Part shown: positions 48,021 to 54,000 of the stretch, piece by piece
How positions within the stretch are numbered: the first letter of the stretch is position 1
Layout of the letters: each line of letters begins with the position of its first letter
Assembly (NCBI GenBank): GCA_046759445.1
Contig: JBHICG010000011.1
Coordinates: 1-64,000, forward strand
Length of the DNA stretch: 64,000 nucleotides
Source of the DNA: Candidatus Scalinduaceae bacterium
GTDB taxonomy: Bacteria > Planctomycetota > Brocadiia > Brocadiales > Scalinduaceae
Direction: 5' to 3'
Position numbers: made by a program

Positions 48021-51000
48021 TAAACAAACCCTCTTATATTACACTATGTGTGTAATCTACTTCACCAGTTACCTGTACTTTTATAGCATCTACCTTTTAA
48101 TCAATGTAACCACTGCTTGAGCGGCAGCAGCCTCTAACCTCCCTATAGAATCCATACCCTCTGTTGTTGTTGCCTTAATATTTACTCTCTCAGGCGTAAT
48201 CTTTAAAATCTCTGAAATACGCTCTACCATTTTCCTTTTATGTTTACTAATTTTTGGCTCTTGTGCAATAAAAACAACATCAACGTTATTTACTATTAGG
48301 CCTTTTTCATTTACCAGTTTATTAATTTTATTAAGTAATATCTGGCTGGAGACGTCTTTCCATTCGTGGTCTGTATCCGGGAAAAGCTCACCTATATCAC
48401 CCAATGAAGCAGCACCCAGTATTGCATCACCAATAGCATGTAGAACTACATCGGCGTCGGAATGTCCTAATAATCCTAAAGGATAATCAAAACTAATACC
48501 CCCCAGTATTAATTTTCTATTTTTTGAAAATTTATGAACATCATAGCCTATTCCCACATACATAACACAGGTATGAGATATAATATTCTAATAGCCTTGT
48601 TTCCTGAGCTCGTCTAGTCTTGACGCAGCTATTTTTTTATAATCTTCGTTTTTGCACATCTTCGATGCCAATTCATAGTATTGTACTGCACTTGCATAAT
48701 CCTTAAGATACAAATCATAAACCCTTGCTGCCATGTAACGGGCTGGTTTCTCGGTGTTTGGATTCAATTCGTATGATTTTACATAGTAAGCTACAGAACT
48801 TTCATAATCTTTAAAATATAGGCTCTCATAAATTTCAGCAATTTCATATGCTGCTTCACTCACCTTATCGCTTTCTGGATAATCATTTAATAACTTTTCA
48901 AATCTATCAAGGGCCGATATTAATTTTGTTTTCTTCTTGAACGGACTTAAAGAGTTCTTATACATCTTGCCATCCTGAAAAAGAATATTTGCCTCTTCGA
49001 TATTTTTTGAAGGTTTTATTTTTACAGCCTTTTCTTTGACCATAAGGTATTTGGGTTGCGGTACTTTCTTAAGCGCCTTTAGTTCCTTCCTCGCATTTTG
49101 TAATCTGAGTTGATAACCAATATCTAAATAAAATTGTATCAATTCCATCAGGGCATTCTCATAGTATTTTCTTGAAGAATCTAAAGCTTTCAGGATTTGT
49201 TCTTCCCTGGATTTCATATCTAAGAGACTCACAGAAGTTTTCTGCTTACAGGCTTCGCAATACTTTTCACCTTCAGGAATCCTTTCATAACAATAGTTAC
49301 AACTTGCCGCCCATGTGTTACCTGAATAACTAATAATTGTAATTGTCAATAACATAATTGCGAACTTTCTCATCTTTATCCTCTTTATTTTATTAAATGT
49401 TTTATATTCCAACTTTACTTAATTTTGACATCTTCTACGAATAAGCTCCTTCGTTCGTTCATAGAGCATTTTTAAATCAGAAATCTGCCTGTTAATTTCC
49501 TCCCTTTCAGACCATCTTGTGTCGCGATAGGCTGATATCTTATTCCCTATATCTTCAATAACTCTATCTACAACCTTTTCAAATTCAAACAACATTAAAC
49601 TGTTAAATCGTTCACATATTGCATCTATTCTTTTCACAAATTGTCTTCTGAATTTTTTTCTCTTTAACGGATAAATTGACAATCCAACTCCTGCTAGAAT
49701 TATAGCTACCGTAATACCAAGTACATTAGGAATAACAAATGATAAAAATGTGGAAAGGCTTATTAAAATACAAACCGCTAGCCCCTCCAAAACAATAAAA
49801 TTTACAAAACCGTTTTGTATTAATCTATATATCCGTGCACTCTCTATTTCACTGTCAAGTTCTTGAAATTGTTTTGTGTATTCTCTAATATTGACATACT
49901 TTTCAGACTCTTGGCTTTTAAAATATAACTCCTTACGTACTGGTGTAGCATCGTTTGTTCGACGTTGTAGGGTTATCTCTGCCTCAATATAATCATGAGC
50001 CATATCCCACAGCACATCATTATTACGATCAACATATTCGATAGCATCATTTATTGTTCTATCCAACTCTGATTTTGGGTTTGCTAGATCAAAGACCTCT
50101 CTCTTAAACTTGTCCTCAATTTTTTCTCGCGCAAACTTCATGGTTATTATTGATCTCGTATTTACATAATAATTCAAAAAGCTGTCAACCTTCTCTTTTA
50201 ATCTGGAGAAAATGGATTTGATTTCAGTCTTATATTTATAAATGTATTCTCTCATATCCTCTTTTTTGTTTCTTAGCCGCTTTTCGAACATTTCTACACT
50301 CTTTATCTCGCTGTTACAATGTGCTATTTTTTTGTTGAGATTATTTTTGAGTTCATCAAAAACATTTAGTAAGTATTTCAAGGGGCTTGAAATCTTAAAG
50401 TCCATCTTTGTTTCATAATCCAACTTTTCGTAAATAAAAGTTTCAATTTCCTCAATGTTGCTCTTTTGTAATAATTCTTTATCACCGGATATCTTTGCAC
50501 TATGAGCGTCTTTTGTTGATAAGTTAATAATTTTTGGTTCAAAACCAAATAGTCTGTAAAAGTTTTTTTCTATAAAAGGTATTATTTCTTTTAATTCATC
50601 TTCGTCTTTCAAATCTATTTTGTTCAGTATAAACAGCAGCTTTCTATCCCATTTGCCTTTTAGTAATTGAAGAAATACCCTCTCACTTTCCGTTAAAGGA
50701 TGGTCTGATGAAGTAACAAATAGTACTAATTCTGCCCTGTGAATGAATCCTTCCGTAATAATCTGATGTTCTGTGATTATGGAGTTTGTCCCTGGCGTAT
50801 CTACAATGATGATATCCTTTAATGGCTCTAAAGGGTATGTAATCTTGCATTGGTGATCATCAATTTCCTCAGAAGATTTTTCTTCTCCATAAGTCAAAAG
50901 AGTAATTTTATGCGTTGAAGGTGTAGGCCCATCAGGTAGAATTCTTTCTCCACAAAGAGCATTAACAAAACTGGATTTCCCAGAGTTATATTCTCCAACT

Positions 51001-54000
51001 ACAACTAAATATAGAGGTTCCTTCGTTTGGGCGGCCATCTCTGATACCTTTTTCTCTAAAGAAACATCCCCAACTCTATAAAAGAACTTCTTAGCTTCTT
51101 CTAAAAGATCCACTACCTGCACAATAGTATCATGAATATCTTCGGTTTGTATTACATTCAACATAGTTCAGTCTCTCACGCTATTTCTTATGATTATAAA
51201 GCACCTAACAAATTGCCAAATGAACCGTAAATTATAAGTTATCACATTTAAGCGTCAAGTAAATTTTCTTGTTTCTATTTTCTTATTTATTTATGCAGGC
51301 TATTGCATCAATCTCTATATTAGCGTCTTTAGGTAATCTCGATACCTGGACAGTAGACCTGGCAGGTGGAGAACCTTCAAAATATTGTGCATAAGTTTCA
51401 TTAATCATTGTATAATTTTCAATTTTTGTCAAATAAATAGTTGTTCGCAATACATTTTGAAGAGAAGATCCGCTAGCTTCTAATATATTTTTTAGATTTT
51501 CGAGTACCTGTTTTGTTTGTTCCTTGATATTGTCTTTTAAGATATCACCAGATTTTGGATCTATAGGTATTTGACCGGAAACAAATACCAGATTGTCAAA
51601 CCGAATTGCTTGAGAATAAGGCCCTATTGCGCTAGGCGACTTTCTTGTCGAAACGACTTTTTTATTCATTCCATTCCTCCAATTTTTTCAAGATTTTTTG
51701 TCCCAACTATCCATTTTGCCCCCTAAGATATTCCTTTTTATCAACTTTAAGCAGATATACTCTTGAATTTAATGTGTTGTTCTGATATTTTAAAACTGAG
51801 GAAATGCAAATAACACACAATACAATTGATACACGTTTATGCGATATATACGAAAAAGTCATGGGTGGAAAACGCCTCGATTATGAGGACGGTATAAAAT
51901 TATTTGAGTCCACTGAAATTCTTGATCTGGGCAATCTTGCAAACATAATAAGAGAAAGAAAGAATAAAAACAACGGTTATTATATTATAAACCGACACAT
52001 AAATTATACTAATATTTGTAAAAACAGATGCAAGTTTTGTGCATTTAGTCGTAACAAGGAGGATAACGGCGCATACCTTTTGAGCACTGAAGAAATATTA
52101 GATAAGGCTTCACAAGTTGTTTATAATGGAGCAACTGAATTACACATTGTTGGAGGCCTGCATCCAGAATTGGGAATAGATTATTACATTAAAATGATAA
52201 ATTTACTTCACGAGCGTTTTCCTGATGTACATTTACAGGCATTCACTGCCGTTGAGATCGCTCACTTTGCAGACATATCTGGAATAACAATACATGAAAC
52301 ACTAAAGGAGCTGAAAAATGCTGGTTTAGGTTCACTTCCTGGGGGCGGAGCTGAGGTTTTTTCACCAAGTATCAGAGAAGAACTTTGTCCAGAAAAACTT
52401 AGTGGTGAAGATTGGTTGAAAACCATGCGTGAAGCGCATTATTTAGGTTTAAGAAGCAATGCGACCATGCTATACGGTCACATAGAAAAAAATAAAGATA
52501 GAGTAGCCCATTTGCTAAAACTACGCGAATTACAAGATGAGACAAACGGATTCATGTCCTTTATCCCTCTTGCATTTCACCCAAAAAACACAGACCTACA
52601 GAACTTCTCCAATACAGCAGGAATGTTAGATTTAAAAATGCTCGCAATAGGGAGATTAATGCTGGATAATTTTGATCACATAAAGGCATTCTGGATAATG
52701 CTTGGTATTAAGCTAGCTCAAGTGTCGCTTAGTTTTGGAGTTGATGACATAGACGGAACGGTGGCAGAAGAGAAAATTACTCATTCAGCAGGTGCAGAAA
52801 CACCAGAGGCGTTAACGGTTGATGAAATTGAGTCATTAATAAGAGAAACGGGGCATGACCCTGTTGAGAGAGACACTCTTTACAATCGAATAACTAGAGG
52901 TAATTAATCTGGATAAGCACAATATAGGAAATATCTCAATAAGATTGCTTATCTACCCCTCCATTTAAAATTGTAGTTACCACGAAAGAAGCTATTTTTA
53001 AAATTTATATTTCTGTAAATAGCTTCAAAAAAAAGAAGGCTCTTTAAAATGTCCTTACAGACATATTAAAGAGCCCTTTTGAATTTAATTTTTGCTACTT
53101 GGCAGCAAAAGCTCTAACTATATTAATAAGCTTCTTAATAGCGCCTTCTGAAATCCTTCCTCTGCATTGTGTACAACCTTTGTCATTAGCTTCAAGGAAC
53201 TTGGTTAACTGCTCGTCCGTAACAGAAGCCTGCCATTTTGCATCAGTGAAGTCGGGAACTCCCATTTTCTTACCTTCTGATGTTCCTTTGCCACCATTAC
53301 CATGGCAATAAACACAAGTTTCCATTGTTCCAAATGACCCCTGAATAGCTCCAGTTGCGAAAACAAAGTAATAGCTCTTTTCTGGATTTCCAATCAAGTC
53401 ATCCAATTCATCTGCCTGACTAGAAGAGCTAATTGCGAAACATGATACTGCAAGTATTGCTAATATACATAAAAAATTTACTTTTTTCATTTTTTTATTA
53501 TCCCCCCTCTAATAGTAACATTTAAAAATTTACTTAAAACTTGAGCGATAAAATTAGACACATAAGTAAAAACATTGGTTAAGGTCTCAACCTTTTTTCA
53601 GTTTGATATACCTTATGGCATGCCTTGCATGAAAGATATAGAAACCTTAAAGAATGGCCGACTGACTCAACAGAACCTTCCGCTGCTTTAGCAGCTGCCG
53701 TGTGTATATCTTCAAGATGAGTAGAGACTAGTTTAGTAATTGCTGCATGATTTTTGTCATTATGTGTACGTTTTCCTTCGTTATCAAGCATGGCCTTTGC
53801 TGCCGCTGCAACACCCTTAAAATCATATGGATTGAATTCATCACCTGGGAGCAAGCCATCATTCATTTTGATTTTTAAATAATAGTCAATCTGTTTTTTG
53901 CAAATATCCTTATCTGATCCATAACCAATTGATGCACTTGCGACAAATAATGATAGTGAAATTATGCATACTACTAAAATGTTTTTTCCCTTCATTTTAC

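Follow-up and report, generated by a model that had tools for sequence, protein, structure and literature searches.

The window analyzed here is a 64,000-nt stretch of a contig from a Candidatus Scalinduaceae bacterium. It carries a gene for a dynamin-like GTPase (DLP), which a preliminary description of this DNA had placed at 49419..51164. This open reading frame proved to be real: read from an ATG on the minus strand, it encodes 581 aa, and many stop codons interrupt the frame on the plus strand. The gene, its predicted domains and its neighbors are as follows.

48090..48563, minus strand: ispF (2-C-methyl-D-erythritol 2,4-cyclodiphosphate synthase), 157 aa (TIGR00151, Pfam YgbB)
48588..49412, minus strand: exported TPR-like protein with two CxxC pairs after the signal peptide (sequence; weak TPR and BamD-like matches)
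49419..51164, minus strand: DLP gene P0001, 581 aa, ATG start (ORF and translation)
49428..49664, minus strand: basic patch (KRKKFRR, aa 501-507) followed by the C-terminal helix, which runs to aa 579 (sequence, AF2)
49665..49811, minus strand: predicted hydrophobic two-helix hairpin, aa 452-500 (hydropathy and AF2)
49866..50417, minus strand: predicted helical stalk, aa 250-433 (AF2 helices 250-333, 336-344, 349-359, 363-404 and 412-433)
50424..51014, minus strand: GTPase domain, aa 51-247 (Pfam, motifs G1/G3/G4, AF2)
51027..51161, minus strand: N-terminal helices, aa 2-46 (AF2 helices 2-31 and 34-46, pLDDT >90)
51231..51258, minus strand: promoter-like site TTGACG-16-TATAAT in the RidA-DLP gap (11/12 consensus positions)
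51283..51669, minus strand: RidA-family deaminase, 128 aa, upstream of DLP (TIGR00004, 172.6 bits versus a cut-off of 106)

The ispF product scored 195 bits against TIGR00151 (cut-off, 116) and matched Pfam YgbB at an E value of 8.8e-63. Read from its TTG start, the TPR-like gene encodes 274 aa; the ATG at 49373, giving 261 aa, is the likelier start. Only 6 nt (45 nt from the ATG start) lie between DLP and the TPR-like gene and 24 nt between the latter and ispF, with no terminator-like site between the three genes. No riboswitch or other Rfam match was found in positions 47500-53000. The promoter-like site was the best of 21, but the total number of such sites was no more than chance would give, and we treat it as a lead only. 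Two metatranscriptome runs from a single study, both DNase-treated, contained near-identical fragments of the DLP, TPR-like and ispF genes as low-depth contigs, none of which bridges a gene junction; the transcript, its ends and cotranscription are beyond their reach.

The earlier assignment to the dynamin superfamily was borne out by Pfam Dynamin_N (PF00350), which matched DLP in two stretches with 90.2 bits (cut-off, 27; E = 2e-25), and by MMR_HSR1 (E = 1.8e-11). At the level of sequence, the G1-G4 motifs are intact, with GEYNSGKS (G1) at 57, DTPG (G3) at 122 and NKID (G4) at 181, and residues G57, E58, G62, S64, N68, D122, T123, P124 and D184 are invariant among 96 aligned sequences. The solved relatives closest by sequence were Nostoc BDLP (2j68, 6e-14), Campylobacter DLP1/2 (5owv, 2e-10) and mitofusin/Fzo1 (1.7e-7). 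An AF2 model (pLDDT 81, pTM 0.71) placed the GTPase domain between helical bundles formed by N-terminal, middle and C-terminal helices, and its top Foldseek matches, at a probability of 1.00, were BDLP (2j69, 4e-16), IniA, Campylobacter DLP1/2 (5owv_C, TM-score 0.57), and MFN1 and Fzo1 (E values of 1e-11 to 1e-10). By likeness to BDLP, the N-terminal helices (aa 2-46) would form part of the neck bundle. The preliminary description had called the protein an FZO/mitofusin/BDLP-like GTPase; the BDLP/mitofusin structural class is upheld by Pfam, sequence, AF2 and Foldseek evidence, but none of the six Pfam families matching DLP at E ≤ 0.01 is a mitofusin-specific model. The Pfam bacterial dynamin helical domain PF21808 did not match DLP either. 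Together with the predicted hairpin, the model supports the view that DLP is a membrane-anchored dynamin-like GTPase of the BDLP/mitofusin structural class.

The hydrophobic stretch reported earlier is also real and spans about 49 residues, but it sits at aa 452-500 rather than at aa 470-520. Mean Kyte-Doolittle values over 19-residue windows reach 2.35, E460 lies in the first helix, P479-N480 in mid-stretch, and KRKKFRR follows directly. This region, about 80 residues ahead of the C terminus, was modeled as two adjacent hydrophobic helices (438-473 and 482-579, the latter running on into the C-terminal helix) joined by a turn at 474-481, a topology drawn from hydropathy and from a low-confidence part of the AF2 model (pLDDT 44-64 over aa 400-500). 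A C-proximal hydrophobic region was present in 102 of 108 full-length family representatives (540-720 aa), with a median span of 45 residues, and P499, followed by K/R-R-K, is nearly invariant in the family. The turn itself differs between groups. Non-anammox relatives carry a D-x-T-G motif (D in 63/77, T in 51/77, G in 69/77), whereas P479 is present in all 19 anammox DLPs examined, and the residue after it is never Asp; the span free of K, R and D has a median of 54 residues in anammox DLPs versus 28 in outsiders. Judged from these alignments, the conserved D-x-T-G turn is replaced by an uncharged proline turn in the anammox clade only, which is a new observation.

The family had been described as present in 89 of 91 other Brocadiales, a figure that we reproduced as an orthologue count. 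DLP matches at E ≤ 1e-10 occurred in 91 of 92 Brocadiales genomes, this one included; one genome (G065) matched only an ~611-aa paralogue and another (G056, 58% complete) had no match, leaving the orthologue in 90/92. In the two genomes lacking it ispF was not found either, so the locus has probably failed to assemble in them. One copy (genome G082) has in-frame stops, and several others are cut by contig ends. Among 40 genomes of sister orders in the class, the orthologue was found in none; HzsA, present in 63/92 Brocadiales, was likewise absent from all 40. Of 373 other Planctomycetota sampled, 87 had a match at E ≤ 1e-5, of the same order as the ~15% given before, and 47 had one at E ≤ 1e-40. 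Also as described, this genome, which is 97% complete, has no dynamin-family gene besides DLP; its two remaining PF00350 cross-matches are Era and Der. In a tree with a distant DLP paralogue of other Brocadiales as the outgroup, the anammox DLPs were monophyletic (SH-aLRT, 100) and the sequences of each genome family clustered together. The anammox clade was placed apart from the main planctomycete clade, a separation that is marginal (p-AU 0.036) and concerns a group named after the tree had been seen. These sequence comparisons support the view of DLP as a single-copy core gene of the anammox order that is vertically inherited.

Linkage to ispF, and its restriction to the order, held up in the loci inspected. 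The ispF gene lay downstream on the same strand in 29/30 and 14/15 loci, together 38 of 40 different genomes, and beside DLP in 14/14 named public Brocadiales loci; it was beside none of 78 non-Brocadiales relatives. As to the two exceptions, a contig end truncates one locus, and genome G012 has no ispF within 13.7 kb. RidA adjoined DLP in 26/30 loci, and the TPR-like gene stood directly after DLP in 49/92 Brocadiales and was also present in 4/4 genomes of a sister family (f6) without DLP. Other housekeeping genes, serS among them, also neighbor DLP. The strict retention of ispF beside it is left unexplained by a reading of DLP as a membrane GTPase.

In four of the five Brocadiales families (f2-f5), ispF is followed by an orphan membrane protein gene, here called ORFx, which was found in 90/92 Brocadiales and in none of the 40 sister-order genomes. 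A set of 5.8 billion proteins contains only 163 relatives of it, and all those with a name come from anammox bacteria. The protein is modeled as a pair of long hydrophobic helices (33 and 38 residues) that carry invariant prolines. ORFx of Scalinduaceae, including that of this genome, lies outside the DLP cluster and adjoins two flotillin-like SPFH genes. The ancestral DLP cluster included ORFx, and the presence of an anammox-only orphan in it is new here. Equally new is the absence from this genome of both FtsZ, not found by a search that was positive in 13/14 control genomes, and PspA/IM30.

BDLP and DLP1/DLP2 share with DLP a GTPase domain, helical bundles and a membrane-binding tip, at 13-17% identity in structural alignments; they bind membranes through a short paddle, in contrast to the ~49-residue hydrophobic hairpin of DLP. 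Campylobacter jejuni DLP1/2 work as a pair, whereas the DLP gene here stands alone. Mitofusin/Fzo1 likewise combines a GTPase, a helical bundle and a membrane anchor near the C terminus, but DLP is much shorter and the kinship is at the superfamily level only. A second DLP paralogue of Brocadiaceae (~600 aa), absent from this genome, forms a separate, distant clade, is 25-34% identical to DLP across the GTPase domain and the initial portion of the stalk, and lies behind fluoride riboswitches in 3/4 loci.

Two eukaryotic families share the domain order of DLP. FZL, the FZO-like protein that plants and green algae have at thylakoid and inner-envelope membranes, is described as a thylakoid fusion factor (PMC5827413; PMC6436760); its GTPase is on the stromal side, which corresponds to the cytoplasm (PMC5827413). 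Like DLP, it combines a GTPase, a coiled-coil stalk and, toward the C terminus, two transmembrane helices, and Dynamin_N is the only signature that Pfam recognizes in it (PMC5827413). Unlike DLP, which starts ~50 residues before the P-loop, FZL is a plastid protein: it carries a transit peptide, is extended far at the N terminus and measures ~900 aa; identity is below 30%. The streptophyte alga Chlorokybus has an 898-aa protein, presumably its FZL orthologue, that aligns with aa 19-544 of DLP (E = 3.9e-41, 28% identity). The other family is that of Trypanosoma brucei TbMfnL, which, according to passages of a preprint (bioRxiv 10.1101/2023.06.28.546890), affects mitochondrial branching and carries motifs G1-G4 in its GTPase and, beyond it, a U-shaped pair of adjoining transmembrane helices near the C terminus, as DLP does. 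The same passages report bacterial homologues in the PVC group, with examples that are not anammox bacteria, and speculate, with mention of the anammoxosome, that a planctomycete homologue structures membranes. The preliminary description took this for a different dynamin family, but compared by published architecture MfnL may be the same family as DLP or a neighboring one; the DLP search also returned amoebozoan and Naegleria proteins of 670-720 aa. MfnL is reported there to be absent from plants, whereas DLP matches include the streptophyte protein. The DLP subfamily (~580 aa, with the same hairpin) is widespread, occurring in Acidobacteriota, Chloroflexota, other Planctomycetota and some eukaryotes, with no cyanobacterial link among 80 loci surveyed. 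Because this architecture is common in bacteria without a known organelle, the fold alone does not point to one.

The best explanation, to which we give a probability of about one half, is that DLP is a hairpin-anchored core protein of the BDLP/mitofusin class that serves constitutively in the fusion, fission or upkeep of cytoplasm-facing membranes. It may serve the cytoplasmic membrane, that of the anammoxosome, or both. The predicted two-helix hairpin would hold the protein in the membrane ~80 residues before the C terminus. Because basic residues flank both hairpin ends, the GTPase and helical bundles are expected in the cytoplasm (riboplasm), with only a short uncharged turn on the far side. 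As inferred from the family, GTPase domains would pair in a GTP-dependent manner and the helical bundles would rearrange, either tethering and fusing the membranes that hold the protein or constricting them. The relatives that have been tested, FZL and TbMfnL, approach internal energy membranes from the stroma or the matrix. The lack of an Rfam element at DLP, compared with the fluoride riboswitches at the paralogue, would fit constitutive rather than stress-switched action. Dynamin-like proteins fuse, cut, repair or only tether membranes, actions that cannot be told apart from sequence. The literature searched contained no experiment on any anammox DLP orthologue. Near-universal retention in anammox bacteria beside the same neighbor makes DLP a reasonable candidate for shaping or dividing internal membranes.

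Action on the anammoxosome specifically is plausible, though in our estimate less likely than not: DLP would sit in the organelle membrane facing the riboplasm and serve in tubulation, fusion/repair or scission at organelle division, perhaps with ORFx. According to passages of one study (PMC2881027), division of the anammoxosome is separate from that of the envelope, and neither membrane links nor vesicles were seen; the organelle would therefore need machinery of its own. For FZL and MfnL, the tested relatives, the site of action is an internal energy membrane, remodeling of the hairpin turn is confined to the anammox clade, FtsZ and PspA/IM30 were not found in this genome, and DLP, ORFx and HzsA are all confined to Brocadiales relative to the 40 sister-order genomes. 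Many genes must be "Brocadiales only," however, so that this pattern alone is weak, and the family is common where no organelle is known. The position of the DLP clade apart from the main planctomycete clade agrees with an anammox-specific role but is marginal and post hoc. ORFx, with its anammox-only distribution, place after ispF and long proline-bearing hydrophobic helices, would be an apt partner, yet it has left the cluster in Scalinduaceae, and sequence cannot tell the anammoxosome from the cytoplasmic membrane. A more elaborate proposal, which we regard as speculative and unlikely, is that a hairpin dynamin was acquired or retained at the origin of the anammox order and then adapted, its charged D-x-T-G turn giving way to an uncharged one with proline that suits a dense membrane of ladderanes, and that it was clustered with ORFx, possibly a curvature wedge of the reticulon kind, which in Scalinduaceae now adjoins the two SPFH genes. 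Together these would shape the curved anammoxosome membrane and split the organelle at cell division without FtsZ or PspA/Vipp1.

DynA and DynB stabilize division sites in Streptomyces, and DLP might similarly help to constrict the cytoplasmic membrane at the division ring or to complete its scission there. We consider this improbable, even though it would suit the only dynamin-family gene of a cell without detectable FtsZ, a core gene with housekeeping neighbors such as ispF and serS. The gene is wholly missing from the sister orders, 326 of the 373 other Planctomycetota sampled have no full-length relative (most Planctomycetota are not known to have FtsZ either), and no division or cell-wall gene was linked to DLP in the loci inspected. 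A role as an anti-phage dynamin of the LeoA type is far less credible still. The PADLOC LeoA model does match aa 19-578 (E = 4.8e-23), as does LeoBC (1.1e-15), but there is no second dynamin gene beside DLP or elsewhere in this genome to make up the LeoA+LeoBC pair, and the NCBIfam LeoA/HP0731 model scored 37.4 bits against a cut-off of 325. Defence islands also behave oppositely to a gene with order-wide presence, stable housekeeping synteny and a tree that follows genome families, and no patchy, island-like distribution was seen. By sequence, the LeoA match is general dynamin-like homology.

We also rejected the identification of DLP with DynA, the two-headed dynamin of Bacillus: NF052648 scored 73.2 bits against a cut-off of 1600, and DLP is a single 581-aa module, in contrast to a fused double dynamin of ~1190 aa. 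Some database names point to ribosome assembly, a role unrelated to membranes.

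DLP, the dynamin-like GTPase under study, lies on the minus strand of the window within a cluster of four genes; on the plus strand the frame is interrupted by many stops.

Genes of the DLP cluster (window positions)
51283-51669, minus strand: RidA-family gene, same strand as DLP, 118-nt gap before DLP
49419..51164, minus strand: DLP, ATG start, 581 aa
48588-49412, minus strand: TPR gene, 261-274 aa; its product has a signal peptide and two CxxC pairs and weakly resembles TPR/BamD proteins
48090-48563, minus strand: ispF, 24 nt past the TPR gene

Pfam matched Dynamin_N in two stretches of DLP (90.2 bits against a cut-off of 27) as well as MMR_HSR1. 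DLP keeps intact GTP-binding motifs, GEYNSGKS at residue 57, DTPG at 122 and NKID at 181, which are invariant across 96 aligned family members. No NCBIfam model reached its own cut-off, the best being Bacillus DynA (73 bits versus 1600), with LeoA/HP0731 at 37 versus 325. An AlphaFold2 model built from the 96-sequence alignment (mean pLDDT 81, pTM 0.71) comprises two N-terminal helices, a GTPase domain at aa 51-247 and long stalk helices. When this model was compared with the PDB by Foldseek, the top ranks were taken by Nostoc BDLP, mycobacterial IniA, Campylobacter DLP1/DLP2 (5owv_C, TM-score 0.57), MFN1 and Fzo1, and a sequence search of solved structures returned the same order. We thus conclude that DLP is a dynamin-like protein of the BDLP/mitofusin class; by Pfam it falls outside the mitofusin family proper. 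The name "Ribosome biogenesis GTPase A", used in some sources, was rejected, since DLP has a dynamin-like fold and falls far short of the cut-off of every NCBIfam model of that type. Across all 3.62 Mb of the assembly, which is 97% complete, Dynamin_N matched DLP and gave two weak cross-hits, identified by NCBIfam as Era and Der, in agreement with the preliminary description of DLP as the sole dynamin-family gene of this genome.

The membrane anchor is an unbroken hydrophobic stretch at aa 452-500, with P479-N480 mid-way and KRKKFRR immediately after it. The length reported for this stretch in the preliminary description was right, and its placement at aa 470-520 was about 20 residues off. In the AlphaFold2 model a helix ends at residue 473 and is followed by a turn (474-481) and a single long helix (482-579), a hairpin whose geometry is unreliable because confidence is low (44-64) over approximately aa 400-500. 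In FZL, the FZO-like protein of plants and green algae, the GTPase lies in the stroma and the anchor is formed by two C-terminal transmembrane helices, as described in passages of PMC5827413, and parts of PMC6436760 describe Fzl as promoting thylakoid fusion. A section of the preprint on the Trypanosoma brucei dynamin TbMfnL (bioRxiv 10.1101/2023.06.28.546890) describes a family whose architecture is that of DLP. In DLP the hairpin would hold the protein in the membrane, on which the GTPase would be expected to act by GTP-driven remodelling.

The TPR gene, which encodes an exported TPR-like protein, begins 6 nt after DLP, or 45 nt after it if the ATG at 49373 is the start. No terminator-like site was found between DLP and ispF, and an Rfam scan of 47500-53000 at E ≤ 1 matched no family. 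The gap between the RidA-family gene and DLP holds the best promoter-like site of the region (11/12 consensus positions), in a region where the total of such sites is not above chance. Short contigs covering DLP, the TPR gene and ispF at low depth, with identity of at least 99%, were present in two DNase-treated metatranscriptome runs from one study. These contigs carry no transcript ends, strand or bridging of gene junctions and therefore do not demonstrate an operon; they back expression of DLP weakly and co-transcription not at all, and the DLP-TPR gene-ispF operon is to be read as putative. The opposite strand carries serS and mqnE, together with genes for an aminofutalosine-deaminase-like hydrolase and an MTAP-like phosphorylase. 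The last three, all of the futalosine route to menaquinone, lie on either side of the cluster (window 44374-46740 and 51804-52907), so that ispF may belong equally to an isoprenoid-quinone neighbourhood as to DLP. Further on, at 53095-54898 (minus strand), three small open reading frames (131, 138 and 207 aa) with weak cytochrome c / c' matches keep their order in Scalinduaceae loci.

With DLP as the query, 91 of the 92 genomes of the anammox order Brocadiales (the studied genome included) matched at E ≤ 1e-10, and full-length orthologues of 49-76% identity were present in all five families of the order. The Kuenenia orthologue bears the public name KsCSTR_15790. Several copies were cut by contig ends. 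One genome, G056 (58% complete), gave no match and another, G065 (92% complete), a distant paralogue only; ispF was also not found in either, indicating that the DLP locus was most likely unassembled there rather than lost. None of 40 genomes from the sister orders of the class matched at E ≤ 1e-10. Orthologues of the hydrazine synthase protein HzsA, searched with the studied genome's own sequence as an anammox marker, occurred in 63/92 Brocadiales and 0/40 sister-order genomes. Within the class, DLP therefore tracks the anammox order and is more fully recovered than hzsA. Farther afield, in a sample of 401 Planctomycetota genomes at least 85% complete, 87 of the 373 non-Brocadiales matched DLP at E ≤ 1e-5, and 47 did so at E ≤ 1e-40, full-length and at 24-32% identity.

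Some side observations concern the assemblies and the marker. In G082, a metagenome-assembled genome 87% complete, the DLP orthologue (C43:10389-12013) contains four in-frame stops, both TAA and TAG, which point either to a pseudogene or to faulty assembly. The 29 Brocadiales assemblies in which hzsA was not found include some rated 99-100% complete (e.g., G034, G032 and G026). Complete Brocadiales genomes often carry two identical hzsA copies, and the gaps likely arise from collapse of the duplicated cluster during assembly. The Pfam family HZS_alpha (PF18582) was tried as a marker and discarded in favor of the HzsA search: it was found in only 60/92 Brocadiales, and the non-anammox relatives G097-G100, G105 and G106 of the sister orders each have 11-20 copies of it, in long proteins (∼800-1700 aa), so that it is no marker of hydrazine synthase.

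The linkage of DLP to ispF is specific to the order. On the same strand and 3' of DLP, either directly or after the TPR gene, ispF was present in 29 of 30 loci, the exception being cut by a contig end. Of 15 longer loci, 14 showed it and one (G012) had no ispF within 13.7 kb; jointly, the two sets cover 40 different genomes, 38 of them with the linkage. The same arrangement was seen in all 14 named public Brocadiales loci. Outside the order, neither ispF, nor the TPR gene, nor ORFx (see below) was found within the flanks read, be it at 12 other planctomycete loci or at 66 non-Brocadiales loci. The TPR gene is an optional member: it was detected in 49/92 Brocadiales, always directly after DLP, and in 0/14 genomes of family f3. 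Relatives of the TPR gene, 27-31% identical, exist in 4/4 genomes of the sister family f6, which is without DLP, and in G088, G089 and G069 the match falls into two pieces or consists only of short fragments.

The ancestral cluster also includes ORFx, an orphan membrane protein of ∼180-280 aa encoded 3' of ispF in families f2-f5. The protein combines a basic N-terminus with a disordered acidic stretch and a ∼70-residue hydrophobic block that contains five invariant prolines. Its Kuenenia copy is known publicly as KsCSTR_15810 or Q1Q1Q8_KUEST. One copy per genome was found in 90/92 Brocadiales and none in the 40 sister-order genomes; a search of 5.8 billion proteins gave only 163 relatives, the named ones coming without exception from anammox bacteria. 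An atlas search returned only its own cluster, and a Pfam scan up to E 10 gave nothing credible; the NCBI label "PRA1 family protein" on one member has no Pfam backing and was rejected. In Scalinduaceae, including the studied genome, ORFx has moved to another contig, where two SPFH/Band-7 genes follow it in 8/8 loci read.

ORFx and the genes after it
C7:26200-26580 (L155:6192-6611), plus strand: ORFx of the studied genome
L045:9044-9700, L044:4761-5453 and L041:7996-8712: ORFx at other loci
L155:6691-7878 and 8089-9453 (contig C7 of the studied genome), also L148-L154: SPFH/Band-7 (flotillin-like) genes after ORFx

AlphaFold2 modelled ORFx with long helices at 38-70 and 72-109 (pLDDT 71-85 in that part), and it may be a membrane-curvature protein. 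A complex prediction for DLP with ORFx scored 0.00 in a run without controls and counts neither way.

Of 1.84 billion cluster representatives scored against DLP, 11,099 matched at E ≤ 1e-3, a number that shrinks to 341 at E ≤ 1e-30; the scores show a sharp fall from the anammox cluster (721 bits, 56% identity) to the next (317 bits, 34%). Most matches were full-length, 570-600 aa long and 24-34% identical. Named members belong to Acidobacteriota, Chloroflexota, Planctomycetota, Rhodothermaceae, Actinomycetota and a Sumerlaeia metagenome-assembled genome, and among eukaryotes to Filamoeba, Clastostelium, Naegleria and the streptophyte alga Chlorokybus. Among representatives of 540-720 aa, 102/108 carry a hydrophobic region (median span, 45 residues) within the final 40% of their length; anchoring by a hairpin is therefore ancient and widespread, and no anammox invention.

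A tree of 112 rows, with 4 Brocadiales paralogues as its outgroup, was built from 19 Brocadiales orthologues, 12 proteins of other planctomycetes and 77 full-length representatives, the latter picked by length among 150 matches listed, leaving out fragments and long eukaryote-type forms. The Brocadiales DLPs formed one clade (SH-aLRT 100), within which the rows of each genome family stood together, inside a 26-row group (support 99) that also includes seven unnamed metagenome proteins. A 24-row clade of their own (support 96) took in the 12 proteins of other planctomycetes. A tree constrained to unite the two clades was worse by 78.5 log-likelihood units (p-AU 0.036, a weak result as the group was named after the tree had been seen). 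Transfer of DLP into the anammox ancestor is thus the favored origin on this sequence evidence, one that the tree does not establish.

The hairpin turn itself differs between the two sets. Outsiders carry a D-x-T-G turn, with Asp in 63/77, Thr two positions on in 51/77 and then Gly in 69/77, and D-x-[TS]-G is kept by the seven nearest outsiders among those listed. In Brocadiales, Pro stands at 479 in 19/19, Asp at 480 in 0/19, and Gly is kept in only 5/19; the median stretch free of K, R and D is 54 residues versus 28 in outsiders. The anammox lineage has therefore rebuilt the membrane-embedded part and conserved the remainder of the protein. That this represents an adaptation to ladderane membranes is speculation.

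As to function, DLP may well be a general, constitutive remodelling or upkeep factor for cytoplasm-facing membranes, a reading to which we assign a probability of roughly one-half. A factor dedicated to the anammoxosome, as proposed in the preliminary description (shaping or dividing the organelle), is a more doubtful candidate; restriction to the anammox order within the class and the rebuilt turn would suit it, and the occurrence of this architecture in many bacteria without a known organelle speaks against it. For cytokinesis, the relevant observation is that FtsZ was not found in the studied genome by a search positive in 13/14 control genomes; PspA/IM30 was likewise not found (9/14 controls positive). 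We consider a cytokinetic DLP improbable. Anti-phage defence is least probable by far and was rejected, the LeoA/HP0731 model reaching 37 bits against its cut-off of 325.

To our knowledge, the anammoxosome is the only bacterial organelle making energy behind its own closed membrane. DLP may bear on its construction, curvature and division. Passages of PMC2881027 describe the organelle as inherited by division, as dividing separately from the envelope and as having no membrane links to it, with no vesicles seen. In the literature searched, no protein was tied to shaping or dividing its membrane, and no statement on the anammox DLP gene was found, subscription papers and proteome supplements lying outside that search. 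One review (PMC12445922) mentions neither GTPase, dynamin, division nor biogenesis; the only relevant passage found, in the part of the TbMfnL preprint cited here, raises the possibility that membranes are structured by a planctomycete homologue. DLP, as a core, order-restricted, membrane-anchored and putatively remodelling GTPase, and ORFx, its ancestral neighbour, make up a short and concrete candidate list. Should general membrane upkeep be the role of DLP, this would still be the first functional context for a large and uncharacterised subfamily of bacterial relatives of plant FZL.

Many other Brocadiales encode a second, distant DLP of ∼600 aa, of which the studied genome has none. In 3/4 loci read it lies behind fluoride riboswitches, an element not found at the studied DLP, and in Kuenenia the second DLP goes by the name "putative dynamin like protein".

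Second DLP of other Brocadiales
L063:4796-6598, two riboswitch copies
L064:4834-6636, two riboswitch copies
L066:4946-6748
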